From the IMG/VR virus record IMGVR_UViG_3300024344_003081: DNA of 64,000 nt; one strand, written 5' to 3'. This document shows, piece by piece, positions 1,025 through 64,000 of this stretch; positions within the stretch are counted from its first letter, which is position 1; every line of letters begins with the position of its first letter. Position numbers and translations under genes: made by a program. The notes beneath the pieces are model-generated. The model did no database searches and was not told where the DNA came from. It was given only the letters and a program-made list of their open reading frames with translations. Source of the DNA: a virus (lineage: Duplodnaviria; Caudoviricetes).

Positions 1025-3691
1025 GTGCTTATGAAAATCCTATATATTACTCCTCACCTATCTACAGGTGGTGCCCCACAGTATCTTCTTAAAAAAATAG
1101 AATTCTTACATAGTGACAATGATATTTATGTCATCGAATATAATGATTATGGTATCTATAGAGTTCAAAAAGATAAAATATTAAACATTTTAAATGACCG
1201 ATTAATAACTTTGTCTGAAGACAAAACTGATATACTGAAATATTTAGATGAAATAAAACCCCATATTGTTCACTTTGAGGAGATGCCTGAATTTTTTGTG
1301 GACGATGAAATAGCAGAACAAATTTATCAAAAAGAAAGAAGATATTTAATTTTTGAAACTTCTCATGATTCTTCATTCAATCCTGATGAAAAAAGATTTT
1401 TACCAGATAAATTTTTATTCTGTAGTGATAATCAATTAATAAAATTTAGATCATTAGATGTTCCTGCATGTGTTATAGAATATCCTGTTGATAAAAAAGT
1501 AGAAGAGAAACGAAGAGATGTTGCTTTAAGAGAATTAGGAGTTGATCCTGCCTTGAAGCACGTATTGAATGTTGGATTATGGACATCTAGAAAAAATCAA
1601 GCAGAAATTATTGAATATGCCAAACTTTTACCTGATGTACAATTTCATTTTGTAGGGAATCTTGCAGAAAATTTCAAAGAATATTGGGAACCCCTAACAA
1701 AAGATTTGCCTGATAATTGTATCGTTTGGGGAGAACGAGAAGATGTAGACAGATTTTATTCATGTATGGATTTATTTTTATTTGCTTCAAGGGGGAATGA
1801 ACACGATAAAGAAACGAATCCATTAGTATTAAAAGAAGCATTATCTTGGAAGATACCTGTTTTAGCACATAAACTTGATTCATATCTTGACAAATATAAT
1901 GATAAAGTTACTTGGCTTTCTGATAATGTTGAAATTAATACAATTAAAATATGCAGAATGTTGAATATAAGTGATCGAATTGTAAATTGTTCCATTGATG
2001 AAACTAAAGTAACTTTACACTTCACGAATTTTTATGAATGTTTTCATGAAAAATTATTATGTATCTATGAAATAGATACTGAATTGTTGGCGTATAGATC
2101 CCATATTATATGCAATTCGATGTGGGCTCAACCGCATTGTGGTAAAGATGTTACAAATGGATTTATAGTAAAAATATATGATGCTCCTAAAAATTATTTT
2201 TCGAATATAAATGATGAAAATTTAGTAGATGATCATCATCTTTTATTCGAAAAAACGTTTTCATGGAAAAATGAAGTAGATATTGCAGTTCTTGGTGAAA
2301 GAAAAAAATTTCATGGAATACCAGATGATCCCTCTTCTTGGTATACTCTTTATGAAACGTTAATATTAAAATATTATAATAAATTAAATTTAATAGAAGG
2401 CGATACTGTAATTGATATTGGAGGTCACTATGGATTTTTTACTATGTACGCCTTAAACAAAGGTGCTTCTCAGGTTCATACAATTGAACCCACAAAAACA
2501 ACTTTTGATGTTTTATGTAAAAATTTAAAAGATTATGATAATGTTAAAAAATATAATTTAGCAATTTCTTCTGATAATGAAAGTAGAGAACTTATTGCTA
2601 TTGGTTCTAGTTCATGTAATTCTTTTCATGAAAACTTTAATAATAGTCCAGACAATAAAGAAAATTTAGGAATAAGAAAAAAACAAGTTGTTAATTGTGT
2701 TACACTTGAACAATTTATGAAAAATAATAATATTGATAGAATAGATGCATTGAAATTAGATTGTGAAGGAGCAGAATGGGATATGTTACCAGCAATTAGT
2801 GATGATTTTTTTAAGTATAAGATAAGAAAACTTTCTATGGAAGCACATCCAGATGGTGTGGGTCAAGAAGGAATGAAAAATAGGGCAATTGAATTTATAG
2901 AACGATTAGAGGGTTTAAATTATCATGTCATTGCTGATTCTCAAATAACATCAAATGGAGAATTGGGTAATTTATGGGCATCAAGAAAACCAAAAATAAA
3001 AATAGTTCATATGCTTGTTGATCCTGATGGAGAAAGAGAAAAAGAATCGATAAGACATCTTACAAAATTATCTGAATATTCGAACTGGAAATATGAACAA
3101 ATAATAAATCCCTTATATAAAGATTTTCCACCAAAAGAAACATGTGCTAGACCAGAATCTGTCCAAATGAAGCCAGGAGAATATAAATTAACTCCTGCAC
3201 ATTATGGTAATTATTCTGCTCATAAAGATGCTATAAACAAACATTTAAATGATGAATTTGATGCGATTTTATTTTGTGAATGTGATGCTATTTTTATAAA
3301 ACCGGTTCATGTGGTTTATAGAGAAATTATGGATAGATTAGATGATATAAATCAATATGATTTGTATTATATGTCTTTTGGAAAAAGAATTCCTGATTGG
3401 GAACACGAAGACTATGAATATTTTGGTGTGACGAATAGAATGTCTGAAGCACATTGTTATTTACTGCCCACAGATAAAAAGAGAAAATTATATTTTAGAA
3501 AGAAATTAAAAGACACGAAGTGGGATACATATGATTTATGGTTGAATAACAATATATTTCCAGATAAGAAATGTGGCATAGTTAAATCTCCTATTTCAAT
3601 TCAATGTTCAGGTGAGTCATATCTAGACAAATCTTTTAAAGATGGAACTACTTTATTAACTGATGAAGAACTAACACATGAAACGTTTTAA
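1025..3691 (+). CDS. Multidomain GT4 glycosyltransferase / FkbM-family methyltransferase / GT-A (GT25-like) fusion
   Basis: N-terminal KILYITPHLSTGGAPQY and ETNPLVLKE (E-x7-E) GT-B motifs; VIDIGGHYG SAM motif and LKLDCEGAE FkbM motif; C-terminal LFCECDAIF acidic GT-A motif. Start may be ATG 1031. Confidence 0.85.
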   Translation: MLMKILYITPHLSTGGAPQYLLKKIEFLHSDNDIYVIEYNDYGIYRVQKDKILNILNDRLITLSEDKTDILKYLDEIKPHIVHFEEMPEFFVDDEIAEQIYQKERRYLIFETSHDSSFNPDEKRFLPDKFLFCSDNQLIKFRSLDVPACVIEYPVDKKVEEKRRDVALRELGVDPALKHVLNVGLWTSRKNQAEIIEYAKLLPDVQFHFVGNLAENFKEYWEPLTKDLPDNCIVWGEREDVDRFYSCMDLFLFASRGNEHDKETNPLVLKEALSWKIPVLAHKLDSYLDKYNDKVTWLSDNVEINTIKICRMLNISDRIVNCSIDETKVTLHFTNFYECFHEKLLCIYEIDTELLAYRSHIICNSMWAQPHCGKDVTNGFIVKIYDAPKNYFSNINDENLVDDHHLLFEKTFSWKNEVDIAVLGERKKFHGIPDDPSSWYTLYETLILKYYNKLNLIEGDTVIDIGGHYGFFTMYALNKGASQVHTIEPTKTTFDVLCKNLKDYDNVKKYNLAISSDNESRELIAIGSSSCNSFHENFNNSPDNKENLGIRKKQVVNCVTLEQFMKNNNIDRIDALKLDCEGAEWDMLPAISDDFFKYKIRKLSMEAHPDGVGQEGMKNRAIEFIERLEGLNYHVIADSQITSNGELGNLWASRKPKIKIVHMLVDPDGEREKESIRHLTKLSEYSNWKYEQIINPLYKDFPPKETCARPESVQMKPGEYKLTPAHYGNYSAHKDAINKHLNDEFDAILFCECDAIFIKPVHVVYREIMDRLDDINQYDLYYMSFGKRIPDWEHEDYEYFGVTNRMSEAHCYLLPTDKKRKLYFRKKLKDTKWDTYDLWLNNNIFPDKKCGIVKSPISIQCSGESYLDKSFKDGTTLLTDEELTHETF

Positions 3692-6600
3692 ATTATCTCT
3701 TGTAACTTCTTGTTACAATGCTGAGTCTTATTTGGAAGAGTTAGCGAATTCTGTTTTTTATCAAAATTATGATCATTGGGAATGGATTCTTGCTGATGAT
3801 TTTTCTGTTGATAATACTCGTACATTAATGGAAGAATTAAAAAGAAAAGATTCTAGAATAAGAATTGTAGAACCCAAACATAAAAAAGAAATTTGGTGGA
3901 ATCCACAACTTCATGCTGTTGGTGAAATAGTATGTCATTTAGATGCTGATGATGCAATTTTACCTGGAACATTTGATAAAATAATACATTATTTTAATTT
4001 ATTTCCAGAAGCAGTTTTACTTCATTTTAATGCAAACAAATATTTTAATACCCTACCCCAAAATACAACTAATCTCTTTGATAATTTTAAAGACAATGTA
4101 TACATGACAAGAGATAACAATTCTTTTTTAGAAGGATTTGAAAAGTTGTGGCCCCAACGAACAAATATTTTTGGATATTTAAGAATATTTAAAAATTTAC
4201 CAGGATTGCATTTTCCAGAACATAAAGATGATGATGCTTGTTTATCAAATGATGGACAATGGCTTTTACATTTAGAAAGATATGGAAAATGGTTAACTAT
4301 TCCTAGAACATCATATCTTGCAAGAGAACACGGTGAATGTGAAAACTTTAGAAACTGGAATCCTCGTGGAGAAGCACAATTAGTAATAAATGAAAAAAGA
4401 GATAGAAATAATTTTATTTTAGAATATCCAAGAAATATTAAATATTTTGATGATATCTATGATTTAGCAGAATCTACTTATTTGAGCAAATTGAATTATG
4501 AAACAGAAAGAAAAAATGTAAGTTTTTTAAATTTTAATTATGGTGAAGAACAACGAACAAAAGTAAAACAATTATTTTTTGATCATGATATAGTTTTTGA
4601 AAAGTATCTAGACAATATTTCTTATTATTTTGTTAAAATAAATTTAGAAGATACATCAGATACAATAAGAACAATTATATCTAAATTACCTGTAGCAAAT
4701 TTTGAATTAAGTTTTTTTTCAGATAATGTGCATTTACATCAAAATAATCGTACACAATCAGACAATATTGAAAATATAAAAGAGACTATTACATCAGATG
4801 GTCGAAGTGTTTTTTGGTATGCACAAGATAATCGAATACAATTTATTTCTGCTGTTCAACAAATAAAAGATGTTTCTGATATTGTTTTATCTACAGGAAA
4901 TGCATATGTTTTAGAAAGAAAAAAAGAAAGAGAAGAAGAAAATAATAATTTAAAAATAATGCAAGTACATATTGGTTGTGGGCTTGATATTCCACCCAAA
5001 GGATATGGGGGATTAGAAGAAGTCATGTATCAATATATGAGAGTAGCAAAGGGTAGAGGACATGAAGTAGAGTTAAAATGGTTAGATGATATAACGCAAA
5101 GTGATTTAGAAAAATATGATGTATTTCATAATCATACTGGTGGATTTTATGATTTATTGAGAGATAGATGTATACCTTATATTTTTACAATGCATGATGC
5201 TTTTGTGAAAATACATGGAAAAGATTCTCATTTTTATATGACTAATAATGAGACTATAAAAAATTCTTTATTCAGTTTAATTCCAACTGAAGATATGATA
5301 GATTTTTTTCTATATCCAGATAAGTTAAGAAGATTGCATCATGGTGTAGATACGAATTTTTATTTTCCTGTAAAAAACAAAAATGATGTACGATTGATTT
5401 GCGTGGGTGGAGGAGATGATAGAAAAGGATTTCATTTAGCAGTTCAGGCGGCAAAAACATTAGGACTTCCTATAACGATTGTTGGACCAGATTCAATACA
5501 TGCAGTATATAATAAAACTTTTTATGATATTGTAGAAGAATGTAAAAATCATATTGATATAACTCTTACAGGTAATGTAGAAAAATATGAATTAAGAAAT
5601 ATATTAAATGAACATCATATAATGATTCATCCAGCATCATTAGAAACAGGGCAACCCTGTCTTGCAGTTCTTGAAGCAATGGCGTGTGGATTACCTGTAG
5701 TTGGAACAATGCAAGATAAAATTTCTTTGAAAGGATTTGAATTATGTACTAGAGAAGTTGATGATATTGTAAATAAGGTTAAACTTGTTTTAAATGACTA
5801 TGATGAATATTCAAAGAAAGCAAGAGAATTTGCTAAAGAAAGAGATTGGGAAAATATTTTTGATGAATTGGAAAAATATTATTATGAAGCAAAAGAATTA
5901 AAATATACTAAGCCATTTGATATGAAAGATAGATTGTTATTTGCGTATCAAAATACAGATGCAGATGGTAAAAATATTTTCGATTTAAATATGCAAAAAA
6001 ATCCTTATTTGGCTGTTAAAGGATCTATTCCTGGAAATTATAAAATTAATTTTATTGATAGAGATACGGGTGGGGTTCATTATTCAAATGATGTTTCTGC
6101 GGGTGGCTGGGTTGCTTGTGGTATTGATTATTATGTTAATTGGAGAGTTGAAGCAATAAATGTTCAAACAGAAGAAATAGAATTTGAATATGAACAAGAT
6201 TTTACAAATAAAAATATTTTTGTTTGGTTTGATTCAGTAGCATTGGGAGATACTTTAGCTTGGGTACCAGTTGTTGAAGCATTTCGCAAGAAACATAAAT
6301 GTAAAATGTATTGTAGTACATTTTGGAACGATTTAGTATCTGAATCATACCCAGAAATAACCTTTATAACCCCTGAATCTGGATTTAATGATTTTGTATC
6401 TTCTTATCGAATAGGTTTTTTTGAAGAAAGTCTTCAATCTCCAGTAGATATGAAAAATGTTTCGTTACAGAAATTATGTGCAGGTATTCTTGGTTTTAAA
6501 GATTTTGAAGAAACAAAATGTGAAATAATAGTTAAAGAAAGAGAGGAAGATCCACAATTAATTCGAAAGCCTTATGTGTGCATTGGTATGCAATCAACTG

Positions 6601-7091
6601 CTCAAGCAAAATATTGGAATTATCCAGGAGGATGGGATGAGGTGGTTGACTTTTTATCCAAAAAGGGATATAATATAGTATGTATAGATAAACACCATTC
6701 TTTTGGACAAGGAGAATATTTTAATAAATCACCAAAAAATGTGATAGGAAGACATGAACGAACTTTAGATCAAACAATTGCTACTTTAAATGGTGCTGAA
6801 TTTTTTATTGGATTGGGTTCTGGTTTATCGTGGTTGGCGTGGTCTTTAAATAAATATGTAGTAATGATATCGGGATTTAGTAATCCTATATCTGAATTCT
6901 CTTCAAAATGTTTTAGAATCCATAATGATACAGTTTGTAATAGTTGTTATAATCGGCATAAATTTGATCCCGGTGATTGGTTGTGGTGTCCAGATCATAA
7001 AAATACTGACAGAATGTTTGAATGCACAAAAAACATTGAACCAGTAAAAGTTTGTGATGCTATTGAAGAAGTAATAAAACTAATAGACTAA
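3678..7091 (+). CDS. Multidomain GT2 / GT4 / Aah-TibC-type (autotransporter O-heptosyltransferase-like) glycosyltransferase
   Basis: GT2 start (LSLVTSCYNAE, ILADDFS, HLDADD); GT4 (GYGGLE, LEAMACGLPVV); C-terminal ALGDTLAW, STAQAKYWN, FIGLGSGLSWLAW, ISGFS and CNSC...WCP...FEC four-Cys cluster. Confidence 0.85.
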   Translation: MKRFKLSLVTSCYNAESYLEELANSVFYQNYDHWEWILADDFSVDNTRTLMEELKRKDSRIRIVEPKHKKEIWWNPQLHAVGEIVCHLDADDAILPGTFDKIIHYFNLFPEAVLLHFNANKYFNTLPQNTTNLFDNFKDNVYMTRDNNSFLEGFEKLWPQRTNIFGYLRIFKNLPGLHFPEHKDDDACLSNDGQWLLHLERYGKWLTIPRTSYLAREHGECENFRNWNPRGEAQLVINEKRDRNNFILEYPRNIKYFDDIYDLAESTYLSKLNYETERKNVSFLNFNYGEEQRTKVKQLFFDHDIVFEKYLDNISYYFVKINLEDTSDTIRTIISKLPVANFELSFFSDNVHLHQNNRTQSDNIENIKETITSDGRSVFWYAQDNRIQFISAVQQIKDVSDIVLSTGNAYVLERKKEREEENNNLKIMQVHIGCGLDIPPKGYGGLEEVMYQYMRVAKGRGHEVELKWLDDITQSDLEKYDVFHNHTGGFYDLLRDRCIPYIFTMHDAFVKIHGKDSHFYMTNNETIKNSLFSLIPTEDMIDFFLYPDKLRRLHHGVDTNFYFPVKNKNDVRLICVGGGDDRKGFHLAVQAAKTLGLPITIVGPDSIHAVYNKTFYDIVEECKNHIDITLTGNVEKYELRNILNEHHIMIHPASLETGQPCLAVLEAMACGLPVVGTMQDKISLKGFELCTREVDDIVNKVKLVLNDYDEYSKKAREFAKERDWENIFDELEKYYYEAKELKYTKPFDMKDRLLFAYQNTDADGKNIFDLNMQKNPYLAVKGSIPGNYKINFIDRDTGGVHYSNDVSAGGWVACGIDYYVNWRVEAINVQTEEIEFEYEQDFTNKNIFVWFDSVALGDTLAWVPVVEAFRKKHKCKMYCSTFWNDLVSESYPEITFITPESGFNDFVSSYRIGFFEESLQSPVDMKNVSLQKLCAGILGFKDFEETKCEIIVKEREEDPQLIRKPYVCIGMQSTAQAKYWNYPGGWDEVVDFLSKKGYNIVCIDKHHSFGQGEYFNKSPKNVIGRHERTLDQTIATLNGAEFFIGLGSGLSWLAWSLNKYVVMISGFSNPISEFSSKCFRIHNDTVCNSCYNRHKFDPGDWLWCPDHKNTDRMFECTKNIEPVKVCDAIEEVIKLID

Positions 7092-7093
7092 AA

Positions 7094-7318
7094 ATGATTA
7101 AAACAATAAAGCCTCAAGATTTTGCAATTATTATAGAAGATATTGTTGCTAATAAAAAAATGACTTATTTAGATGCAATATCTCATTACTGTGAAGAAAC
7201 AAAAATGGAACCAGAAACAGTTGGAAAACTTGTTCAAGGAAATTTAAAAGCCAAGCTAAGAGAAGAAGTTACGGCCTTGCATTTTCTCCCAAAAACTGCT
7301 ACAATACCAGGACTATGA
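7094..7318 (+). CDS. gp33: Late-promoter transcription coactivator gp33
   Basis: 74 aa, IEDIV..KKMTYLDAISHYCEE..EPETVGKLV..LKAKL; T4-like gp33-59-32 synteny. Confidence 0.9.
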   Translation: MIKTIKPQDFAIIIEDIVANKKMTYLDAISHYCEETKMEPETVGKLVQGNLKAKLREEVTALHFLPKTATIPGL

Positions 7319-7935
7319 TAAAAATGGATCCGTTTGATTGTTATAAAGAATACGTTTCAATCAAGACTCATTTTCATGCTAATAAGTATGATTACTTTAA
7401 GCATAAAAAAAGAAAAATCTCATTGAATGCTTTTAAAAAACGTAATGATCAATTCTTTTTTGTAAGATTGTCAAAAAGTTATAAAGATGATGAGATATCG
7501 AAATTCTTTGTTGCTAACTTTATTGAGAATGAAAACTTGTGGATAGGTGATGCACTTGATTCACAAGCAGAAATGAAATATAAAGAATGGCAAAAAAGAA
7601 TACAAAGCATGAGTTATATTTTTAGCAATGATATTGAAAAATTGTTGAACAAAGAAGATTTTGAAAATTGGTTCAAAGTTGAAAAGGGTCAACATCCTTT
7701 ATTGCTGAAACAAACGATTGCTAAATATATTTGTATGGAAACTTTTTCCATACTTAATATGATACTTAACTTTGTTCCTGATTGGGATCAAAAGATAAAA
7801 GAAACTTTTGTCTGGCCTCAGTTTAGAGATAAAGTTTTAAAATACACTCCATTTTTGGAGGTGGATAAGACGAAATTTCGTAAAATACTACGAGATACAA
7901 TTAATACAACGAATATAACGAATATGAAAGGTTAA
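7315..7935 (+). CDS. gp59: Helicase loader gp59
   Basis: FDCYKEYVSIKTHF..KYDYFK, FFVANF, WIGD motifs; synteny. Confidence 0.9.
   Translation: MIKMDPFDCYKEYVSIKTHFHANKYDYFKHKKRKISLNAFKKRNDQFFFVRLSKSYKDDEISKFFVANFIENENLWIGDALDSQAEMKYKEWQKRIQSMSYIFSNDIEKLLNKEDFENWFKVEKGQHPLLLKQTIAKYICMETFSILNMILNFVPDWDQKIKETFVWPQFRDKVLKYTPFLEVDKTKFRKILRDTINTTNITNMKG
7884..7926 (+). repeat. Imperfect 9-nt A-rich direct repeats just upstream of the gp32 start
   Basis: AATACTACG (7884), AATACAACG (7903), AATATAACG (7912), AATATG (7921). Confidence 0.55.
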
Positions 7936-7936
7936 C

Positions 7937-8821
7937 ATGGCACAACTATCTGCACTAAAAAAATCCCGCAAATCCTTTATGCAAAATCTTCACAAAGAAA
8001 TTGAGAAGATTGATACTCCTTCTGAATCGAAGAGTTATATCGATGATCGATTTTGGAAGCCAGAAATAGATAAGTCTGGAAATGGATATGCTGTTATTCG
8101 ATTTCTTCCCCCAGTAGATGGAGAAGATATTCCATGGGCGAGAGTTTTCAACCATGGTTTTCAAGGACCAACAGGTCTTTGGTACATTGAAAATTCTTTG
8201 ACAACTCTTGGTAAGAAAGATCCTGTCTCAGAATATAATTCTCAACTCTGGAATTCTGGAATCGAGGCGAACAAAGAGATTGCTCGTAAGCAAAAACGCC
8301 GTCTAACTTATATCAGTAACATTTATATTGTTTCTGATTCAAAGAATCCTCAGAACGAAGGAAAAGTTTTTCTATACAAATTTGGAAAAAAGATTTTCGA
8401 TAAAGTCAATGATTTGATGAATCCCGAATTTGAAGATGAAACTCCTGTAAATCCTTTTGATCTTTGGGAAGGTGCGAACTTCAAATTGAAGATTCGTAAA
8501 GTTGAGGGTTATCAAAATTATGATAAGAGTGAATTTGATAAACCTGCACAACTTGTAGAAGATGAAACTGAGCTTGAAAAAGTTTGGAATTCACAGTATG
8601 CTCTTACAGAATTTACTGGTGATGATCAATTTAAGTCTTATGAGGATTTGAAAGCGAGATTAGATTCTGTTCTTGCAGTAGAAACTCCTCCTATTACTGA
8701 GCCTGTTTCTCGACCTGTTACTAAACCTAAAACTGCTGAAGATGTATCATCAGAAGATAAAACAACTTCTGAAGATGATGAAGATATGTCTTATTTTGCT
8801 AAGTTAGCAGAAGATAATTAA
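7937..8821 (+). CDS. gp32: Single-stranded DNA-binding protein gp32
   Basis: DDRFWKP..DKSGNGYAVIRFLP, WYIENSLTTLG..DPV, acidic tail ending MSYFAKLAED. Confidence 0.97.
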   Translation: MAQLSALKKSRKSFMQNLHKEIEKIDTPSESKSYIDDRFWKPEIDKSGNGYAVIRFLPPVDGEDIPWARVFNHGFQGPTGLWYIENSLTTLGKKDPVSEYNSQLWNSGIEANKEIARKQKRRLTYISNIYIVSDSKNPQNEGKVFLYKFGKKIFDKVNDLMNPEFEDETPVNPFDLWEGANFKLKIRKVEGYQNYDKSEFDKPAQLVEDETELEKVWNSQYALTEFTGDDQFKSYEDLKARLDSVLAVETPPITEPVSRPVTKPKTAEDVSSEDKTTSEDDEDMSYFAKLAEDN

Positions 8822-8847
8822 TCTAAGAGTGCTTAGTACTCACTTTA

Positions 8848-8890
8848 ATTAGGGGGCCTGGAGTGTCGTTCCAGCGGCACGCCTCCTAAT
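8848..8890 (+). other. GC-rich structured element between convergent gp32 and tape-measure genes
   Basis: 10-bp outer stem ATTAGGGGGC/GCCTCCTAAT enclosing two alternative inner stems, CTGGA/TCCAG and GTGTCG/CGGCAC; no U-tract on either strand. Confidence 0.6.
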
Positions 8891-8892
8891 CA

Positions 8893-10746: not shown

Positions 10747-10748
10747 TA

Positions 10749-11677: not shown

Positions 11678-11702
11678 TATATCTCCATTTTTTAATTATT
11701 TT

Positions 11703-12826: not shown

Positions 12827-12831
12827 AATTA

Positions 12832-13270: not shown

Positions 13271-13271
13271 G

Positions 13272-13278: not shown

Positions 13279-13304
13279 TTATGTATATAACGTAGAGGAG
13301 AATA

Positions 13305-54042: not shown

Positions 54043-54053
54043 GGAGAAAAGAA

Positions 54054-54635: not shown

Positions 54636-54650
54636 TACCTCAAAAAACAT

Positions 54651-54728
54651 AATTTTCTGATTTTGCGAGTGAATAAATATAAATTAGTACAGTACTATTA
54701 TAATTATTTAACTCGCATTCAGGAAATT
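54651..54728 (+). promoter_or_regulatory. Long imperfect hairpin in the portal leader containing a late promoter and occluding the RBS
   Basis: AATTTTCTGA/TCAGGAAATT, TGCGAGT/ACTCGCA and TAGTA/TACTA stems; AATAAATA at 54672-54679; AGGA RBS lies in the 3' arm. Confidence 0.7.
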
Positions 54729-54730
54729 AC

Positions 54731-56413
54731 ATGCCTATTGAACTATTCGGTTTTTCAATCGGAAAAAAAGAACAAAAGAACGTAAAGGTTCAAACTTTTG
54801 CGGAAGCAGAATATGAAGATGGAGCATTGTCCGTAGCATCAGGTGGTGTTTATGGAACATATGTTGATACAGAAGGTGCTATAAAAAGCGAGTCTGAATT
54901 GATAAACAGATATCGTGATATGGGTCTTCAAGCAGAAGTAGAGAACGCTATTGATGACATTGTTAATGAAGCAATTGTATCATCAAAAGACAAACCCGTT
55001 GTAAGAATTAACGTAGATAATTTAAATGTTTCTGAACCCATTAGAGACAAACTAAGACTAGAATTCAAATCAATAAGTAAACTTTTAGATTTACAAAATT
55101 TAGGATCTGATGTTTTTAAGAGATGGTATATTGATGGTAGAGTTTATTATCATGTTATTGTTGATGAGAATAACTTAGAAAAGGGTATTCATGAATTAAG
55201 AATCTTAGATCCCAGAAAAATAAAGAAAATACGAGAAAAGAAAAAAGAAAAACAACCCGATGGTAAAACAAAAACCACGGTTTTAGAATATTATGTTTAT
55301 AATCAAAAGGGAATTTATCAATCACAAGGACAAGTAATCGGAACTGCTTTTACAAGTGCCGCCAGTGGTTTAAAGATATCTCCCGATTCGATTGTATATA
55401 CACATTCAGGACTAATGAATGCTACACGTTCATTAGTTTTATCCTACCTACACAAAGCAATCAAACCATTAAATCAATTAAGAATGATAGAAGATTCTCT
55501 GGTAATTTATCGTATTTCACGGGCTCCAGAAAGAAGAATTTTTTATGTTGATGTTGGTAATTTACCAAAATTAAAAGCAGAACAATACATGCGTGATTTA
55601 ATGACACGATACAAAAATAAACTTGTATATGATGCAAACACCGGTGAAGTTAGAGATGATAGAAAACATATGTCAATGCTTGAAGATTATTGGATGCCAA
55701 GAAGAGAAGGTGGAAGAGGAACAGAAATTTCTACCCTACCTGGTGGTTCAAATCTTGGAGATATTGAAGATGTATTATATTTTCAGAAAAAACTTTACAA
55801 ATCACTAGGTGTTCCTATTTCAAGACTTGAATCAGAAGCAAATTATACAATTGGCCGTGCTACAGAAATTTCAAGGGATGAAGTTAAATTTACACGGTTT
55901 GTTAATAAACTCCAAAGTAGATTTAGTTTAATGTTTGATGAGATTATGGAAAGACAATTAACACTCAAAGGCATAATGTCTAGAGAAGATTGGAAAAATG
56001 TTAAGAATGAAATATTTTATGAATTTGAAAACGATAGTCATTTTGCAGAAATAAAGCATAATGAACTTCTTCAAGATAGATTAAACATTTTAAGAGATTT
56101 ACAAGATTATGCTGGAAAATATTGGTCACATGAGTATATAAGAAAGCATATTTTGATGATGACTGATGATGAAGTTAAATCTAATGATGAGCAAATGCAA
56201 AAAGAATTAGATGATCCCAGATTTTCGGGAGAAGAAGAAATGCAATTTAATTCCGTAGAAGTAAATACGGACAATAAACAATATATCAATGAAGATATTG
56301 ATAAAAAAATTGAGGAGAAATTTGAAGTTGCGAAGAAAGAAAATGAGATTAAAGATAAAGTAAATGATATTCTTTTTTCTGTTTTAGAAGATGATGAAAA
56401 ATTTGTAAGTTAA
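54731..56413 (+). CDS. gp20: Portal vertex protein gp20 with charged C-terminal extension
   Basis: WYIDGR, EDSLVIYRISRAPERRIFYVDVGNLPK.KAEQY, EDYW.PRREGGRGTEI.TLPGG, EISRDE.KF. Confidence 0.98.
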   Translation: MPIELFGFSIGKKEQKNVKVQTFAEAEYEDGALSVASGGVYGTYVDTEGAIKSESELINRYRDMGLQAEVENAIDDIVNEAIVSSKDKPVVRINVDNLNVSEPIRDKLRLEFKSISKLLDLQNLGSDVFKRWYIDGRVYYHVIVDENNLEKGIHELRILDPRKIKKIREKKKEKQPDGKTKTTVLEYYVYNQKGIYQSQGQVIGTAFTSAASGLKISPDSIVYTHSGLMNATRSLVLSYLHKAIKPLNQLRMIEDSLVIYRISRAPERRIFYVDVGNLPKLKAEQYMRDLMTRYKNKLVYDANTGEVRDDRKHMSMLEDYWMPRREGGRGTEISTLPGGSNLGDIEDVLYFQKKLYKSLGVPISRLESEANYTIGRATEISRDEVKFTRFVNKLQSRFSLMFDEIMERQLTLKGIMSREDWKNVKNEIFYEFENDSHFAEIKHNELLQDRLNILRDLQDYAGKYWSHEYIRKHILMMTDDEVKSNDEQMQKELDDPRFSGEEEMQFNSVEVNTDNKQYINEDIDKKIEEKFEVAKKENEIKDKVNDILFSVLEDDEKFVS

Positions 56414-56459
56414 AAATTTATAAATTGATTCTGGTGAAGATTTAGGTGCAGAGACATAA

Positions 56460-59400
56460 ATGAAAGACGATCAAAAAGAACCACAAGACTTAGATTTAAG
56501 TAAAGTTTTAGCTACTGCTCTTGCTTATACTAAAAAAACACTTAAAAAGACTAAAGAAGAACTTGTTGTAGGCATAAAAGAAATTTTAGATCCTGTAACT
56601 GGTGAAAAAGTCAGAGTTCTTGAAATCAAAGGTACAGAAGGTTCCAAGGGCGAAAAAGGTGAAAAGGGAGAGCAAGGAGAGATTGGTCCCGTTGGTGAAC
56701 GAGGGGAAGACGGGAGAATTGGGCCTCAAGGTGTTCAAGGACCTCAGGGAGAGCAGGGAGAAACTGGACCCGAGGGACCCGAGGGAGAAAAGGGCGATCC
56801 TGGTGATGATGCTGAAGTAACTAGACTTGAAATTGAAATAGAAGGCATCAAAAAAGTTGTTAAAGAAGTTAGTTCAAAAGCAACCCAAACTGCACAAAAA
56901 GTAGCAGGAGGAAGCGGTTGGGGTGAAGGCGGCGGTGGAGGAGGAGCTTCTGGAATACACGGAACACATGGAACTTCTGGATCTGCGGGTTCATCTGGCG
57001 AAACTCATGGTACTTCTGGATCTTCTGGAGTTGATGGAACGTTTTTAGGCACTCATGGTACTTCTGGCTCTGCAGGAAGTTCTGGAGGAACAGGAAGTCA
57101 TGGTACTTCTGGCTCTGCAGGATCATCTGGATCTGCTGGTTCGTCTGGCTCATCTGGGTCTACAGGAACTTCTGGATCATCTGGTTTAACATATGCTTCA
57201 TCTGGATCTTCTGGAACTGCAGGAACATCTGGTCGTGATGGCGGTTCTTATATTCATATTCAATCTTCAGCCCAACCTGTTTGGTTAATAAATCATAATT
57301 TAAATACTAGACCAATAAACATATTAGTAGTAGATAGTGATTACAATGTAATTTATCCTGAATCTGTTCAATTTATTGATTCCAATACTGTAAAAATAAT
57401 CTGGCCTTCCTCTCAAGCAGGATTTGCTTCAATCACTTTTGGTGAAGCCTCTTCTGGTACTTCAGGAACATCTGGATTAACATATGCTTCTTCTGGTTCT
57501 GCTGGCTCTGCAGGAAGTGCTGGATCTACTGGTTCTGCAGGAAGTTCGGGAAGTGCTGGAAGTGCAGGAAGTTCGGGATCGTCTGGTCGTGATGCTTCTT
57601 CTGGATCATCTGGTTCTTCTGGAACATCTGGAACATCTGGAGTAGATGGTGAACAAGGAGATACGGGAGAAGGAGGAACTTCTGGTTCGTCAGGAACTAC
57701 TGGAACGCATGGAAGTTCTGGTTCTTCGGGAACAGATGGGACATCAGGAACATCTGGATCAGATGGAACTGAAGGAGATACAGGACCTCAAGGAACTGGA
57801 GGAACATCTGGCTCTGCAGGAAGTTCGGGAAGTGCTGGATCGTCTGGTTCATCTGGAGAAGATGGAACTTCGGGATCGTCTGGTTCATCTGGAGAAGATG
57901 GAACTTCTGGATCTTCTGGATCGTCTGGTTCTGCAGGAAGTTCTGGAACTTCTGGAACTGCTGGTACAAGTGGAACTTCTGGAACTGCTGGATCATCTGG
58001 TATAGATGGTGGTTTTGGAGGAGCTTCATTTTCATATCGTTACAATACTACACAAGGTACGGATGATCCAGGAACAGGGAAAATAGCATTTACTCTAACT
58101 TCTGGTACTTTTACAACTCCTGATCAAGCTAATAGATTAAGAATAAGTGATACTGATCAAGACGGAACAATAATTGATAGTTTTTTACAAACAATTAATG
58201 ATGTTGCTTTTAGTGATCCTAAAGGACATTTACGAATTTATGATAAAGATGATCCAGATGAATTTATGTTATATGGTATCAATGAATTTGATACTGTAAA
58301 TCCTTCATGGTATTATGTAAAAGTTACATATTTAGATTCCTCATTAACTGATTTTCAAAACGCAACTGAACTTGTTGCAACATTTGCAAGAACTGGTGAT
58401 TCTGGAACTTCTGGATCTGCTGGTTCATCTGGATCTGCGGGTAGTGCTGGATCCGCTGGTTCTGCTGGAAGTGCTGGCTCTGCAGGGAGTGCGGGTTCTG
58501 CAGGAACTGCTGGTTCTGCTGGTTCATCTGGATCCGCTGGATCTTCTGGATTGACATATGCTTCTTCTGGATCTGCTGGATCGTCTGGATTGACATTTGC
58601 TTCATCTGGATCATCTGGAGGAACAGGAAGTCATGGAACTTCTGGAACTACTGGAACTTCTGGCTCTGCTGGAAGTACTGGTTCTGCAGGTTCTGCAGGT
58701 AGTGCTGGATCTTCTGGACAAGATGGTGGTTCTTATATTCATAATCAAGAGTCAGCGGCATCCGTTTGGTTAATAAATCATCATCTAGGTGTTAGACCTT
58801 TAAATACTACAGTTGTAAATACTGATTATGATGTAATTTATCCAGAATCGATTAGATTTACAGACTCACGTACTGTTAAATTAGTTTTTACATCTGCAGT
58901 AGCGGGTTGGTGTGCATTAACTTTTGGAGAAGGCTCTTCTGGAACTTCTGGTTCTTCTGGAACTTCTGGATCGTCTGGTTCTGCAGGATCTGCTGGTTCT
59001 GCTGGTTCTGCAGGATCGTCTGGATCGTCTGGTTCTGCAGGAAGTGCAGGTAGTGCTGGATCATCTGGATGGACTTATGCTTCTTCTGGATCGTCTGGTT
59101 CTGCAGGAAGTGCTGGCTCTGCTGGAAGTGCTGGATCTGCTGGTTCTGCTGGAAGTGCAGGAAGTTCGGGAAGTGCTGGATCGTCTGGCTCTGCAGGAAG
59201 TTCGGGAAGTGCTGGATCTGCTGGTTCCGCTGGTTCTGCAGGGAGTGCTGGTTCATCTGGATCTGCAGGAAGCTCTGGATCTTCTGGTACTTCTGGATCT
59301 TCTGGTTCATCTGGCTCTGCAGGAAGTGCTGGCTCTGCTGGAAGTGCTGGCTCTGCAGGATCATCTGGATCTGCTGGTTCATCTGGCTCTGCAGGATCAT

Positions 59401-61499
59401 CTGGATCTGCTGGTTCATCTGGCTCTGCAGGAAGTGCTGGAAGTGCTGGCTCTACAGGAAGTTCGGGAAGTGCTGGATCATCTGGTCGTGATGGTGTTTT
59501 TGGAGGAGCGGCTTTTGAATATGATTTTTCAAATACAGCATTTGTAGGAGCTACAAGTGATCCTGGTGCGGGTAAACTTAACGTAGGATTCGATAATGGA
59601 TCTATTACTTTAGAGGATGATACTGGAAGTTTTATTTTAGAAACAGAGTCGGATCTTTTATTAGAGGGAGGTTCTACACCTACTGATTTTTCTACAGTTA
59701 ACAGAATTTCTATAAGCGAAACTGATGTAAATGGAACATCAACTGAAAGTTTTTTAAGTCAAGTTCAAACAGCAACATCTGCAATTAAAGGTCATGTAAG
59801 AATTCATCGAAAAACATATTCTGACCAATATGCAATGTTTACCATTCATTATGTTACTAATAATACAGATTTTCAAGAAATAGAAGTTACAAAAGTTGGT
59901 GGTGAAAATGCATTTTTTGCTAATGATGAAGACATAGTTGTTACATTTGCAAGAACTGGTGATGCTGGAACATCTGGAACATCTGGATCATCTGGATTAA
60001 CTTATGCTTCTTCTGGAAGTGCTGGCTCTGCAGGAAGTGCAGGAAGTTCTGGAACTGCAGGATCGTCTGGTCGTGATGGGGGTTCTTTTACTCATGAACA
60101 ATCTTCAGCGGCATCTGTTTGGTTAATAAATCATACTTTAACAAAAAGAGTTATAAATGTTCAAGTTTGTGATGATGATTATAATGTAATTTATCCAGAA
60201 TCTATTCAATTTACGGATTCAAATAATATAAAAATAGTATTTCCTACTGCAATAGCAGGATGGGCTACAGTAACGTTTGGAGAATCAACTTCTGGTACTT
60301 CTGGAACTGCAGGATCATCTGGAATAACTTATGCTTCTTCTGGATCGTCTGGTTCTGCAGGAAGTGCTGGCTCTGCTGGAAGTGCTGGATCTGCTGGTTC
60401 TGCTGGAAGTGCAGGAAGTTCGGGAAGTGCTGGCTCTGCAGGAAGTGCTGGTTCATCTGGCTCTGCAGGAAGTGCTGGAAGTGCTGGAAGTGCAGGAAGT
60501 GCTGGCTCTTCTGGTTCTGCAGGAAGTGCTGGATCCGCAGGAACTTCTGGAACTGCAGGAACTTCTGGACTAGATGGTAATTTTGGAGGAGCATCTTTTG
60601 AATATGATTTTGAAAATACAACATTTACAGGTGCATCAAGCGATCCAGGTTCTGGTAAACTTGAAGTAGGTATTGATACTGGATCTGCACCAACTGATTT
60701 CTCTACAGTTAACAGAATTTCTATAAGCGAATTAGATGTAAATGGTACATCAACTGAGAGTTTTCTAGATCAAGTTGATGGTGCAACATCTGCAATTAAA
60801 GGTCATGTAAGAATTCATAAAAGATTTAATAGTGATCAATATGTAATATTTACAATTTCAGATGTTACTAATAATACAGATTTTCAAGAAATAGAAGTTT
60901 CAAAGATCGGAGGACAAACTGCATTATTTTCCGATGATGAAGATATAGTTGTTACATTTGCAAGAACTGGTGATGCTGGAACATCTGGAACTGCTGGAAC
61001 TTCAGGAACTGCAGGAACTTCTGCTTCTGCTGGTTCTGCAGGAAGTGCTGGATCATCTGGCTCTGCAGGAACTTCTGGAACTACTGGTTCTTCAGGAAGT
61101 GCAGGAAGTTCGGGAAGTGCTGGATCGTCTGGCTCTGCAGGAACTGCAGGATCCTCTGGATTTTTAAATCTAAATAATTCTGCAGAAGATCGTTTAATTT
61201 CTATTAATGCTGATACTGAATCTGGTGATGGAGAAACAAATTTAACATTTGATGGAAATGAATTAAATGTAACTGGTAAAACTTTTTTGGTGGGTACAAG
61301 TGGAACAACTGGTTATATTCAAATGTCTCAAAGAGATGATGTTTCAGGAAATAAACCTACTTTGACTGCAGGTCAATCTGCAGTTTTTTCAAGTTCTTCG
61401 GGAGCAGGAGGAACAGGAATATATTTTAAACAAGGAACTGATGATCCCGATGAATTGGTTTCACGCAAAAAAGCAATAACTTATGGATTAATATTCTAA
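56460..61499 (+). CDS. Giant collagen-like / Gly-Ser-Ala triplet-repeat fibre protein with alternating globular modules A and B
   Basis: About 20 canonical G-X-Y collagen triplets, a short coiled coil, then hundreds of residues of G-S-A/G-S-S/G-T-S separating three A modules (H.Q.S...W.I.H.L..RP) and three B modules (F.Y...DPG.G...KGH.RI...TFARTGD); ends DELVSRKKAITYGLIF. Confidence 0.85.
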   Translation: MKDDQKEPQDLDLSKVLATALAYTKKTLKKTKEELVVGIKEILDPVTGEKVRVLEIKGTEGSKGEKGEKGEQGEIGPVGERGEDGRIGPQGVQGPQGEQGETGPEGPEGEKGDPGDDAEVTRLEIEIEGIKKVVKEVSSKATQTAQKVAGGSGWGEGGGGGGASGIHGTHGTSGSAGSSGETHGTSGSSGVDGTFLGTHGTSGSAGSSGGTGSHGTSGSAGSSGSAGSSGSSGSTGTSGSSGLTYASSGSSGTAGTSGRDGGSYIHIQSSAQPVWLINHNLNTRPINILVVDSDYNVIYPESVQFIDSNTVKIIWPSSQAGFASITFGEASSGTSGTSGLTYASSGSAGSAGSAGSTGSAGSSGSAGSAGSSGSSGRDASSGSSGSSGTSGTSGVDGEQGDTGEGGTSGSSGTTGTHGSSGSSGTDGTSGTSGSDGTEGDTGPQGTGGTSGSAGSSGSAGSSGSSGEDGTSGSSGSSGEDGTSGSSGSSGSAGSSGTSGTAGTSGTSGTAGSSGIDGGFGGASFSYRYNTTQGTDDPGTGKIAFTLTSGTFTTPDQANRLRISDTDQDGTIIDSFLQTINDVAFSDPKGHLRIYDKDDPDEFMLYGINEFDTVNPSWYYVKVTYLDSSLTDFQNATELVATFARTGDSGTSGSAGSSGSAGSAGSAGSAGSAGSAGSAGSAGTAGSAGSSGSAGSSGLTYASSGSAGSSGLTFASSGSSGGTGSHGTSGTTGTSGSAGSTGSAGSAGSAGSSGQDGGSYIHNQESAASVWLINHHLGVRPLNTTVVNTDYDVIYPESIRFTDSRTVKLVFTSAVAGWCALTFGEGSSGTSGSSGTSGSSGSAGSAGSAGSAGSSGSSGSAGSAGSAGSSGWTYASSGSSGSAGSAGSAGSAGSAGSAGSAGSSGSAGSSGSAGSSGSAGSAGSAGSAGSAGSSGSAGSSGSSGTSGSSGSSGSAGSAGSAGSAGSAGSSGSAGSSGSAGSSGSAGSSGSAGSAGSAGSTGSSGSAGSSGRDGVFGGAAFEYDFSNTAFVGATSDPGAGKLNVGFDNGSITLEDDTGSFILETESDLLLEGGSTPTDFSTVNRISISETDVNGTSTESFLSQVQTATSAIKGHVRIHRKTYSDQYAMFTIHYVTNNTDFQEIEVTKVGGENAFFANDEDIVVTFARTGDAGTSGTSGSSGLTYASSGSAGSAGSAGSSGTAGSSGRDGGSFTHEQSSAASVWLINHTLTKRVINVQVCDDDYNVIYPESIQFTDSNNIKIVFPTAIAGWATVTFGESTSGTSGTAGSSGITYASSGSSGSAGSAGSAGSAGSAGSAGSAGSSGSAGSAGSAGSSGSAGSAGSAGSAGSAGSSGSAGSAGSAGTSGTAGTSGLDGNFGGASFEYDFENTTFTGASSDPGSGKLEVGIDTGSAPTDFSTVNRISISELDVNGTSTESFLDQVDGATSAIKGHVRIHKRFNSDQYVIFTISDVTNNTDFQEIEVSKIGGQTALFSDDEDIVVTFARTGDAGTSGTAGTSGTAGTSASAGSAGSAGSSGSAGTSGTTGSSGSAGSSGSAGSSGSAGTAGSSGFLNLNNSAEDRLISINADTESGDGETNLTFDGNELNVTGKTFLVGTSGTTGYIQMSQRDDVSGNKPTLTAGQSAVFSSSSGAGGTGIYFKQGTDDPDELVSRKKAITYGLIF

Positions 61500-61500
61500 T

Positions 61501-61821
61501 ATGTCTATCGAAACAAATTTAATAGCAAATACAAATAGTGCAACAGCCACTACAGTTTATACTTCATCAGGAGAGTCTGCAGTTACAACAATATTTTTTT
61601 GTAATACAGATTCTTCTGCTATTGATGTAACATGTTGGATTGTTCCTAATGGTGACACATTGGGAGATGAACACATGATAATGAAAGAATTAACAATAAA
61701 TGCAACTGATACTTTTGCTTTTGGAAGTGAAAGAATTTTAATGGGAGCAAGCGATACTATTCAAGCAATCGCTGATACAGTAGATAAAGTTTCAGTAGTA
61801 ATTAGCTATACGAGTATTTAA
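61501..61821 (+). CDS. Small beta-rich virion protein of the type that follows fibre genes in T4-like marine phages
   Basis: 106 aa, TVYT...SAVTTIFFCN, I.A.DT....ERI.M...D.I.A pattern; 1-nt gap after upstream stop. Confidence 0.55.
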   Translation: MSIETNLIANTNSATATTVYTSSGESAVTTIFFCNTDSSAIDVTCWIVPNGDTLGDEHMIMKELTINATDTFAFGSERILMGASDTIQAIADTVDKVSVVISYTSI

Positions 61822-61824
61822 TTA

Positions 61825-64000
61825 ATGGCACTATTTCTTAAAGGCGAATACGCAGATTATAGTTTAAAAGAGAAAACAACTTCTGGTTCCGCTGGCTCTG
61901 CTGGATCTGCGGGGAGTGCTGGATCTGCAGGTTCTGCTGGTTCTGCAGGATCGTCTGGATTGACATATGCTTCATCTGGAAGCTCTGGCTCTGCGGGTTC
62001 TGCAGGGAGTGCTGGATCTTCTGGACAAGATGGTAGTTCTTTTGTTCATACTCAATCTTCAGCTTCACTTGTCTGGTTGATAACTCATGGTTTAGGAACT
62101 AGACCAGTAAATATAGAAGTTGTTGATGATAATTATAATGTTATTATACCAGAATCTATTCAATTTATTGATGGAAATAATGTAAAAATAGTATTTACTT
62201 CTTCACAAGCAGGATATGCCGCCATAACTTATGGACAGGGTTCTTCTGGAACTTCTGGTTCTGCAGGAACTTCTGGTTCTTCGGGAATGGGTGGAACTGC
62301 TGGATCATCTGGATCTACTGGTTCTACAGGAAGTGCTGGCTCTGCAGGATCATCTGGCTCTGCGGGAAGTGCAGGAAGTTCTGGGAGTGCTGGTTCTTCT
62401 GGTTCTGCAGGAACTTCTGGAACTACTGGAACTTCTGGAACTGCAGGAACATCTGGACAAGATGGAAATTTTGGTGGTCAATCTTTTGAATATGATTTTG
62501 AAAATACAACATTTACAGGCGCCGCAAGTGATCCAGGTTCTGGTAAACTTGTAGTAGGAATTGATACTGGATCTGCACCTACAGATTTTTCTACAGTTGA
62601 TAGAATTTCTATGAGTGAAGCTGATGTAAATGGTACATCAACTGAAAGTTTTCTAGATCAAGTTGATGGTGCAACATCCGCAATTAAAGGACATGTAAGA
62701 ATATCGAAAAAATTTGATACAAGTACGTATGTAATGTTTACTATCTCGGATGTTACTAATGATTCGGGTTTTCAAGAAATAGAAGTTTCGAAAATAGGAG
62801 GACAAACTGCATTATTTGATGATGATGAAGACATAATTGTTACATTTGCAAGAACTGGTGATGCTGGAACTTCTGGAACATCTGGTTCTTCAGGAAGTGC
62901 TGGTTCTGCAGGATCATCTGGCTCTGCGGGAAGTGCTGGCTCATCTGGATCCGCTGGCTCTGCGGGAAGTGCGGGTAGTGCTGGAAGTGCTGGTTCTGCT
63001 GGAAGTGCTGGCTCTGCAGGAAGTGCTGGTTCTTCGGGGGCAGGAGGAACACACGGAACTGCAGGTAGTGCTGGATCTGCTGGTTCATCTGGATCTGCAG
63101 GAAGTGCTGGCTCTGCGGGTTCTGCAGGAAGTGCTGGATCTTCTGGACAAGATGGCGGATCTTATATTCATACTCAATCTTCAGCTTCACTTGTCTGGTT
63201 TATACCTTATAATTTAAATACTAGGCCTGTAAATATAGAAGTTGTTGATGATAATTATAATGTAATTTATCCAGAATCTATTCAATATATTGATTCAAAT
63301 AATGTAAAAATAGTATTTCCTACTACTCAAGCAGGATATGCGGCGGTAACTTTTGGTGAAGGATCGTCTGGATCATCTGGTTCGTCTGGATTGACTTATG
63401 CTTCATCTGGATCATCTGGTACTTCTGGATCATCTGGGAGTGCTGGTTCTTCAGGAAGTGCTGGATCTGCTGGTTCCGCTGGCTCATCTGGATCCGCTGG
63501 CTCTGCAGGAAGTGCTGGTTCATCTGGCTCTGCAGGAAGTGCTGGAAGTGCTGGAAGTGCAGGAAGTGCTGGCTCTGCAGGAAGTGCTGGCTCTGCTGGT
63601 TCTGCGGGCTCTTCTGGATACACTTATGCTTCATCTGGTTCATCTGGCTCTGCGGGAAGTGCTGGTTCTGCAGGATCATCTGGTTCGTCAGGAACTACTG
63701 GAACTTCTGGAACATCTGGTTCTTCAGGAAGTGCTGGTTCTGCAGGATCATCTGGCTCTGCGGGAAGTGCTGGTTCTGCTGGATCCGCTGGCTCTGCAGG
63801 AAGTGCTGGAAGTGCTGGTTCATCTGGTTCTGCTGGTTCTTCAGGAAGTGCTGGAAGTGCAGGAAGTGCTGGCTCTACAGGAAGTGCTGGATCCGCTGGC
63901 TCTGCAGGGAGTGCTGGATCATCCGGTCGTGATGGTGGATCTTACATTCATACACAATCTACACCTGCAATTGTTTGGTTAATACCTTATAATTTAGGAA
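61825..64000 (+). CDS. Second Gly-Ser-Ala repeat fibre protein, partial (runs off window end; absent from ORF track)
   Basis: ATG 61825 [27 protein letters not shown]..., open to 64000; modules A, B, A and the start of another A. Confidence 0.85.

Follow-up and report, generated by a model that had tools for sequence, protein, structure and literature searches.

The 64,000-nt stretch of DNA analysed here (the window; IMG/VR record IMGVR_UViG_3300024344_003081) comes from an uncultured marine T4-like myovirus and encodes two parts of what may be a single system: an enzyme module of two open reading frames (ORF1 and ORF2), which ends in a domain of the TibC/Aah family of protein O-glycosyltransferases, and, ~50 kb further on, two collagen-like fibres rich in Ser and Thr. 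It is clear which domains the enzymes contain, that the catalytic motifs of these are intact and that one marine T4-like lineage conserves both sets of genes, and TibC-like genes lie near fibre genes of the same type in other phages. The explanation that we favour, at about even confidence and from sequence comparisons, is that the phage encodes a protein-glycosylation line aimed at its own virion, and most likely at the collagen-like fibres.

The enzyme module and its TibC-type domain

A phmmer search against the PDB aligned residues 786-1130 of ORF2 with residues 39-384 of the 406 residues of TibC (4rb4/4rap) at an E value of 3e-65, and the same domain scored 319.4 bits with the Aah/TibC equivalog model NCBIfam TIGR04414, for which the cut-off is 200. 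The homology runs over the full length, such that the domain retains the N-terminal beta-barrel as well as the GT-B catalytic core. Key residues were mapped from the structural study of TibC (PMC4358343), and their conservation was scored in 37 unique relatives sharing 37-90% identity. The TibC residues Asp110, Thr226, Lys230 and Trp305 correspond to D858, T974, K978 and W1052, all four invariant in 37/37 relatives; among 73 more distant phage homologues, the Asp, Lys and Trp are likewise invariant, and the position of Thr226 is occupied by Thr or Ser. The four Cys of the iron finger (TibC 339, 342, 358 and 370; here C1087, C1090, C1104 and C1116) are kept in 36 of the 37 relatives, and the equivalent of TibC Phe368 is also present. 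This near invariance of donor and catalytic residues argues for an active enzyme. The domain shows no similarity to the alpha- or beta-glucosyltransferase of T4. As the initial annotation had claimed, ORF2 ends in a domain that truly belongs to the TibC/Aah family of protein O-glycosyltransferases, an assignment that we consider firm at the level of sequence. The characterised activity of this family is O-glycosylation of protein Ser only, the native acceptors of TibC being beta-helical repeats of bacterial surface adhesins (PMC4358343).

The family membership is firm, but it does not extend to an ADP-heptose donor or to the oligomeric state of TibC, because a donor contact and the thumb tip are altered and the domain is part of a fusion. 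TibC Arg286 contacts N1 of the adenine, a contact that is the basis of the ADP-sugar specificity of TibC, and its replacement by Ala abolishes or largely diminishes activity (PMC4358343). This residue aligns with T1033 of ORF2 and is Thr in 31/31 sequences of the T4-like lineage; Arg is kept in 55 of the 73 other phage homologues. With its nucleotide pocket changed from Arg to Thr, the domain may use a donor other than ADP-heptose. In addition, Pro300 of TibC is replaced by Gly, the hydrophobic pair at the tip of the beta-hairpin thumb (Phe265 and Val266), which TibC needs to form its dodecamer ring, becomes Glu1013-Tyr1014, which is variable among relatives, and the domain is fused behind GT2 and GT4 glycosyltransferase (GT) domains instead of standing alone.

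The remainder of the module consists mainly of further GT domains and a methyltransferase. ORF1 (1025-3691, with the true start probably at the ATG at 1031) opens with a GT4-type domain in which the translation displays an E-x7-E motif and the Glycos_transf_1 match covers residues 176-292. There follows a methyltransferase of FkbM type, which reaches 56.6 bits with PF05050 (cut-off 22.7) over residues 464-617 and contains the glycine motif VIDIGGHYG for binding of S-adenosylmethionine (SAM). The last 248 residues (641-888) match no Pfam family, PF01755 included, and no NCBIfam family; modelled with AlphaFold2 (AF2) from an alignment of 16 relatives, they adopt a predicted GT-A fold (predicted local distance difference test (pLDDT) 70.6, predicted template-modelling score (pTM) 0.76). 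Foldseek against the PDB gave human COLGALT1, which galactosylates collagen hydroxylysine, as top match (9evk/9evj, E 8e-8, template-modelling (TM) score 0.58-0.61), followed by GT25 beta-1,4-galactosyltransferases, Mimivirus R655/R699 and PBCV-1 A64R, and the Atlas feature search also pointed to GT25 (score 0.91). All 16 aligned sequences share an E-C-D (DxD-like) motif that follows a beta strand. By its modelled fold, this domain is probably a glycosyltransferase of GT25 type. ORF2 (3678-7091, 1137 aa), which shares its first 14 nt with the end of ORF1, carries in turn a GT2 domain, a linker that varies more than any other part of the module (34-78% identity among relatives), a GT4 domain and the TibC-type domain. 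The count of five GT domains and one FkbM methyltransferase on two polypeptides, given in the initial annotation, is thus upheld, with four of the GTs matched by sequence profiles and one by fold.

For the rest of the genome we used as proxy a contig of 161,038 bp (G001:C1) that is colinear with the window and ~88% identical; it is shorter than the genome from which the window derives, so that absences on it are weak. This contig (PAAV01000055.1) was deposited within a Chloroflexota metagenome-assembled genome (isolate NAT137). Its G+C content of 27-31%, close to the ~30% of the window, lies ~10 points below the 37-42% of the other contigs of the bin; it was probably mis-binned, inflating that genome, and Chloroflexota are therefore not taken as the host. 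A search of cultured phage records with 1025-7091 by megablast returned no match.

Collagen-like fibres and their pairing with TibC-like genes

The two structural ORFs at 56460-64000 do contain, as had been noted from the translations, hundreds of Ser and Thr in GSA, GSS and GTS triplets. Fibre 1, the gene for which begins 46 bp past the portal gene, is composed of 21.4% Ser, 9.9% Thr, 20.9% Gly and 1.7% Pro, and holds 245 in-phase Gly-X-Y triplets (GSA 88, GSS 59, GTS 28), X being Ser or Thr in 82% of them and Y being Ala or Ser in 76%. Fibre 2, which is cut off by the window, has 132 triplets and a Ser content of 26%, and its counterpart on the proxy contig has 1662 aa. Triplets were counted in phase in runs of at least 5, the longest runs reaching 45-46. 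Together, the two fibres offer ~550 Ser and ~220 Thr. Ser in position X is encoded by both codon families (TCN 104, AGY 51), which indicates selection for Ser, a hydroxyl residue, itself; in position Y, nearly all Ser codons are TCN, in alternation with the GCN codons of Ala. By their PHROG profiles, both ORFs belong to collagen-like families of tail fibres. The description of these genes as late stands as regards their position in the structural block after the portal, from which late expression may be expected; it finds no support in the promoter, as no TATAAATA motif lies directly upstream of the fibres.

Fibre 1 consists of an N-terminal region, a charged collagen tract, three units each made of a Gly-Ser (GS) tract, module A, a second GS tract and module B, and a C-terminal domain; modules A (~70 aa) and B (~130-155 aa) are globular. 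Residues 58-117 (56631-56810) are its sole canonical charged collagen tract; the GS tracts depart from the usual pattern of stabilising Pro or hydroxyproline or charged pairs in X and Y. Module B (residues 1014-1168; 59499-59963) is predicted to be an all-beta fold (pLDDT 83.8), and the model gave no significant match in the PDB. Searched by tblastn against cultured phages, the fibre modules matched only the tail fibre of the Pelagibacter podophage HTVC010P, and weakly so (E 1e-4); this likeness of module B is a faint hint as to the host. An eight-residue interruption, G-[LWIY]-T-[YF]-A-S-S-G, recurs in 10 conserved copies across both fibres, often flanking globular modules, with the Gly phase shifted by one residue.

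The charged tract of fibre 1 has Lys in position Y (GSK, GEK, GEK ... GEK). It is at Lys in Y that collagen is classically hydroxylated and galactosylated. The island upstream of the module on the proxy encodes an oxygenase of the P4H type, dependent on 2-oxoglutarate (2OG) and Fe(II) (PF13640; L006:8900-9427). A hydroxylysine-sugar route like that of Mimivirus L230 is conceivable for this tract but speculative. Directly after the second fibre gene, the proxy also shows a small Cys-rich ORF (98878-99411) and then ORFs with the radical-SAM-type motif CxxxCxxC, so that candidate modifying enzymes flank the fibres downstream too.

Evidence linking the two gene types comes from other phages. TibC-like genes were found by profile search on at least 576 IMG/VR contigs. 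We sampled 71 diverse TibC-like viral loci (1.0 Mb) and, as a control, 117 viral loci chosen pseudo-randomly with an arbitrary 14-mer (also 1.0 Mb). A fibre ORF was scored if, no more than 10 kb away, a proline-free Gly-X-Y ORF had 12 or more triplets and a Ser/Thr share of 40% or above. Such an ORF, of 12 to 544 triplets, was present in 32/71 loci and in 0/117 of the control (Fisher p 1.2e-16), and in 9 of 21 enzyme clusters defined at 60% identity (p 8e-9). The median distance between enzyme and fibre is 4.4 kb, and 27/37 of these ORFs are on the same strand. The co-occurrence of TibC-like enzymes and GS-triplet proteins proposed at the outset thus extends to diverse other phages, and this strong association makes the fibres the best candidate acceptor. 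We found no paper describing phage TibC-type enzymes or the enzyme-fibre pairing.

The cultured Microcystis phage Mel-JY01 (PP395634.1:3065-13162), a possible experimental model, encodes a 1226-aa fusion of GT4 and TibC-like domains directly after a Ser-rich structural protein (18% Ser) that is not collagen-like. The fusion is annotated merely as 'methyltransferase FkbM' and lies 3 kb before a gene for a 639-aa cytidylyltransferase-like protein; in the same genome, an open frame of 519 aa, about one third Pro with PEVP/PLVP-type repeats, runs across the annotated coding sequence 739-2298.

Within the marine T4-like lineage, both parts are conserved at fixed positions. The whole ORF1-ORF2 module lies directly before gp59/gp32 in ~50 IMG/VR loci, over which the identity of the TibC-type domain falls from 90% to 48%. 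A giant Ser/Thr-rich Gly-X-Y ORF begins 8-50 bp past the portal in 62/62 loci with a portal at least 71% identical, and in 0/15 outgroup loci (portal identity 50-54%). The contigs that span both sites (3/3) have enzyme module and fibres. Local adjacency of the two is rejected for this lineage, none of the ~50 loci having a fibre ORF within 10 kb of the module, and the separation of ~50 kb reported for the window is confirmed. A TibC-like domain is absent from all cultured phage records that have a T4-type portal, and five complete cultured T4-like genomes match neither this domain nor the GS-collagen query, which was positive in two jumbo phage records that carry TibC-like genes. The co-occurrence predicted for T4-like phages is accordingly observed, with both gene types in the lineage and neither in the five cultured genomes, as a single evolutionary event. 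Note that two outgroup contigs, G006 and G007, have one of their ends at gp32 and are not informative on the slot of the enzyme module. One of them, G007 (57 kb), contains 5-6 collagen-like ORFs of 24-152 triplets with 9-19% Ser/Thr in X and Y; next to these ordinary, Ser/Thr-poor ORFs, it is the Ser/Thr-rich, proline-free type that is distinctive. Many lineage contigs stop 0.4-3 kb past the portal, inside the collagen-like ORF. Fibre repeats evidently break short-read assemblies, and fibres are thus under-represented in viral databases.

Coordinates of the features discussed, in window positions
Feature	Position	Strand	Basis
Sigma-70-like promoter candidate upstream of ORF1	940..974	+	TTGACA, 17 nt, TAAACT, TATAAT just after; read from sequence
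ORF1 domain 1, GT-B glycosyltransferase of GT4 type, residues 1-400	1025..2224	+	Pfam Glycos_transf_1 E 1e-9, Glyco_trans_1_4
ORF1 domain 2, FkbM-type SAM methyltransferase, residues ~441-640	2345..2944	+	Pfam PF05050; phrog_8156 methyltransferase
ORF1 domain 3, GT-A fold, probably GT25 type, residues 641-888	2945..3691	+	AF2 model and Foldseek
ORF2 domain 1, GT2 (GT-A) with D-A-D motif	3678..4457	+	Pfam PF00535 E 3e-16, residues 7-139
ORF2 linker, residues ~261-429, no recognised domain	4458..4964	+	Pfam scan
ORF2 domain 2, GT4 (GT-B), residues ~478-721	4965..6017	+	Glycos_transf_1 E 1.6e-13, Glyco_transf_4; phrog_2170
ORF2 domain 3, TibC/Aah-type (BAHT) protein O-glycosyltransferase	6033..7091	+	PDB 4rap/4rb4; NCBIfam TIGR04414
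gp33-like late co-activator (7095-7317), gp59 helicase loader (7315-7935), gp32 single-stranded DNA-binding protein (7937-8821)	7095..8821	+	Pfam T4_Gp59_N/C, gp32
Portal protein gp20	54731..56413	+	phrog_213, E 1.5e-202
Fibre 1, 1679 aa	56460..61499	+	Translation, triplet counts, PHROG tail-fibre and collagen-like families
Small ORF between fibres, 106 aa, 27% Ser+Thr	61501..61821	+	In relatives, two fibre ORFs likewise ~310 bp apart
Fibre 2, at least 725 aa, open at window end	61825..64000	+	GS tracts and modules A and B as in fibre 1

Besides the features listed, the window encodes baseplate proteins and the tail sheath, and its portal is ~52% identical to those of cyanomyoviruses and of the Methylophilales phage Melnitz.

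Candidate acceptors and the first sugar

In the explanation that we favour, ORF1 and ORF2 would form a soluble, cytoplasmic glycan assembly line acting on the virion proteins of the phage itself. The TibC-type domain would put the first sugar on Ser hydroxyls of the fibres in the cytoplasm, the GT2, the two GT4 and the GT25-like domains would lengthen the glycan, the FkbM domain would O-methylate one of its sugars, comparable to chlorovirus A064R, and the glycosylated chains would be incorporated into the particle. Several observations weigh against it. Since the two loci are 50 kb apart, the link rests on the association in other phages, where 12/21 TibC-like clusters have no adjacent fibre ORF, and on co-conservation in one lineage, which amounts to one gain event. 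The module lies behind a promoter of early type, and the genes that follow it serve replication and do not encode fibres. The 161-kb proxy contig has neither gmhA nor hldE; in the bin to which it was assigned, nothing reaches the cut-off for HldE and a complete ADP-heptose pathway was not found, and Arg286 is Thr throughout the 31 lineage sequences. A complex prediction of the TibC-like domain with a 60-residue GS tract (score 0.00, partner pLDDT 26) is evidence neither way.

Regarding the first sugar, the bin contains a GmhA-like gene (187 bits, cut-off 209) in a bacterial capsule-type cluster and no GT9 enzyme besides the phage's own. These negatives on the heptose pathway are absence of evidence only, because they come from a proxy that falls short of the full genome behind the window and from a bin that is not taken as the host. 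Together with the Arg-to-Thr change, they give no support to the proposal that heptose primes the Ser and Thr, nor to the expectation of ADP-heptose genes elsewhere in the genome; heptose as first sugar is possible but not supported.

The position and expression signals of the module bear on what else it could modify. It is preceded by a near-consensus sigma-70-type promoter, of early type, with no + strand TATAAATA late motif at 940..974, and leads into gp33, gp59 and gp32. Such an early promoter and early-gene position would fit host takeover, and the module could remodel a host envelope glycan (O-chain, capsule or other) or glycosylate a host surface protein, for instance to keep competing phages from superinfecting the cell. 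This is the published reading for the GTs of marine T4-like myophages, the many glycosyltransferases of pelagimyophages having been interpreted as modifiers of the host O-chain (PMC7029224); GT2 and GT4 domains are moreover typical of polysaccharide synthesis, and TibC and Aah natively modify bacterial surface adhesins. We nevertheless consider it unlikely. On the proxy, ORF1, ORF2 and ~38 upstream genes have at most one predicted membrane segment each, no multi-pass protein of flippase or polymerase type was found among them, and neither an initiating transferase nor an exporter is apparent. A module conserved lineage-wide is also unlike the hypervariable islands of host recognition, and the genomic association of TibC-like genes with fibres would be left unexplained.

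The neighbourhood of gp33, gp59 and gp32, immediately behind the module, is also what keeps glycosylation of the phage DNA itself in play, with the glycan placed on a hydroxylated base as an anti-restriction hypermodification. Phage GT clusters can put diverse sugars, including heptose, on 5-hydroxymethylcytosine (5hmC) and are often located beside replication genes (10.1101/2023.12.21.572611), and the proxy encodes a C5-cytosine methyltransferase (G001:C1:130103-131365; PF00145, E 2e-35) and, in the upstream island, the 2OG-Fe(II) oxygenase mentioned above. Because of the clusters adjoining replication genes and of this methyltransferase, modification of DNA is a live option, albeit a long shot. 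The methyltransferase gene is ~90 kb from the module, and no hydroxymethylase of ThyS type (PF00303) was found on the proxy or in the bin; a search for Tet/JBP (PF12851) was likewise negative on both, which is a weak negative as the control search was silent everywhere. All domains of the enzyme module are acidic (pI 5.0-6.0), not basic, and the TibC-type domain keeps the accessories of a protein-modifying enzyme, the beta-barrel and the iron finger, unlike the alpha- and beta-glucosyltransferases of T4. Modification of DNA would also leave the association with fibres unexplained.

The specificity of that association for Ser/Thr-rich Gly-X-Y ORFs argues, within the virion, for the fibres over other structural proteins. 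Baseplate or fibre, capsid or tail-tube proteins could be acceptors too: Ser/Thr-rich candidates of baseplate or fibre type are encoded at 23123-27064, 29715-33887 and 35703-42587, several structural ORFs have 21-24% Ser+Thr, the native acceptors of TibC are beta-helical and not collagen, and the Ser-rich neighbour of the Mel-JY01 fusion is not collagen-like. Alternatively, the module could decorate a small-molecule product of the block of soluble enzymes, ~32 kb long and with many radical SAM proteins, that lies just upstream on the proxy. Against the latter, a promoter of its own precedes the module, and between the module and this island lie two genes in the opposite orientation. We regard such acceptors, other virion proteins and small molecule taken together, as distinctly unlikely. 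The island itself (G001:C1:1-31921) comprises ~38 co-oriented, mostly overlapping ORFs, at least 14 of them with CxxxCxxC; seven of nine scanned ORFs reach the Radical_SAM cut-off of Pfam and two are weaker. Apart from radical SAM, the Pfam scan of 30 island ORFs yielded hardly more than one 2OG oxygenase and one protein each of aminotransferase-like and QueC-like type, and most of the ORFs that are not radical SAM have no Pfam match.

Returning to the virion-directed glycosylation line, a more specific form of it would be a 'glyco-collagen', in which Ser of the proline-free fibres is primed by the TibC-type domain, the glycan is extended by the four other GTs and methylated, and the sugars replace hydroxyproline in holding the triple helix and form an outer coat. 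We consider this possible though doubtful. The order of priming, extension and methylation, and the roles in adhesion, shielding or helix stabilisation proposed at the outset, are likewise hypothetical. What is new in this window is that the system belongs to the conserved core of a marine T4-like lineage and has its parts far apart, and further that the nucleotide pocket is altered and a probable GT25-type domain is present. To our knowledge, only a few phages, mycobacteriophages for example, have been demonstrated by experiment to glycosylate their virions with enzymes of their own, and we know the TibC/Aah family solely as a modifier of bacterial adhesins. If fibre glycosylation is true, a sizeable fraction of uncultured phages, represented by at least 576 IMG/VR contigs and including a widespread marine T4-like lineage, would possess dedicated fibre O-glycosylation. 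The GT 'auxiliary metabolic genes' of marine phages, now taken as modifiers of host lipopolysaccharide, would then need re-reading, a sugar layer would join the models of host recognition and particle stability, and the fibres would provide a natural system for asking if O-glycans replace hydroxyproline in collagen helices.

Comparison with known systems

The closest relatives of the putative priming domain, TibC and Aah of the bacterial autotransporter heptosyltransferase (BAHT) family (4RAP/4RB4), share homology over the whole protomer, with the beta-barrel, the catalytic Asp, the Thr/Lys/Trp contacts and the four-Cys iron finger, and the likely acceptor is again a repetitive, Ser-rich surface protein in which small residues neighbour the Ser. 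They differ in that TibC is a stand-alone enzyme of 406 aa and the phage domain is the third of a 1137-aa fusion, with a Glu-Tyr thumb tip, Thr for Arg286 and Gly for Pro300. The phage also has no autotransporter, no ADP-heptose pathway was found in the proxy and its bin, and the candidate acceptor is collagen-like and not a beta-helix.

The likeness to the GT-methyltransferase fusions of chloroviruses, suggested in the initial annotation, holds for the architecture: A064R of PBCV-1 is a GT-GT-methyltransferase fusion that builds the capsid glycan (PMC9614988), and both systems are soluble, viral and multidomain, combining GTs with a sugar methyltransferase, A064R acting on a structural protein of its own virus. 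However, A064R extends an N-linked capsid glycan in a eukaryotic virus, whereas the phage has two polypeptides with five GT domains and a putative priming domain of a type known from bacterial O-glycosylation, and between the two systems the domains are related at the level of fold only.

In Mimivirus (L230 and the collagen-like L71) and in animals (COLGALT1/LH3), hydroxylysine is glycosylated. Mimivirus resembles the present case as a virus encoding both collagen-like proteins and enzymes to glycosylate them, which here are candidates. COLGALT1 is the nearest structure to the C-terminal domain of ORF1, and fibre 1 starts with a collagen tract bearing Lys in Y; this fold likeness, at 10-13% sequence identity, is uninformative on the acceptor. 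No lysyl hydroxylase was identified in the phage, in contrast, and most of the fibre is without Lys.

BclA of Bacillus anthracis and BclA3 of Clostridioides difficile, with its SgtA, are heavily O-glycosylated collagen-like glycoproteins of the exosporium that form a surface nap. Like the fibres, they have collagen-like Gly-X-Thr/Ser repeats, and the terminal sugars of BclA are methylated or otherwise tailored. They differ by other GT families, by Pro-rich GPT triplets where the phage has GSA and GSS, and by being bacterial, not viral.

Two phage systems offer further comparisons. Mycobacteriophage GTs decorate structural proteins of their own virion (Freeman et al, 2023, cited in PMC12619734), as is proposed here; the acceptors there are C-termini of capsid and tail-tube subunits, and neither a TibC-type enzyme nor a collagen-like fibre is known to take part. 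Pelagimyophages and cyanomyophages (PMC7029224) are marine and T4-like, and have many GTs, radical SAM cassettes and structural proteins with collagen repeats; their GTs are located mostly in a hypervariable host-recognition island, whereas the module described here occupies a fixed core position and ends in a domain of protein-glycosylating type.

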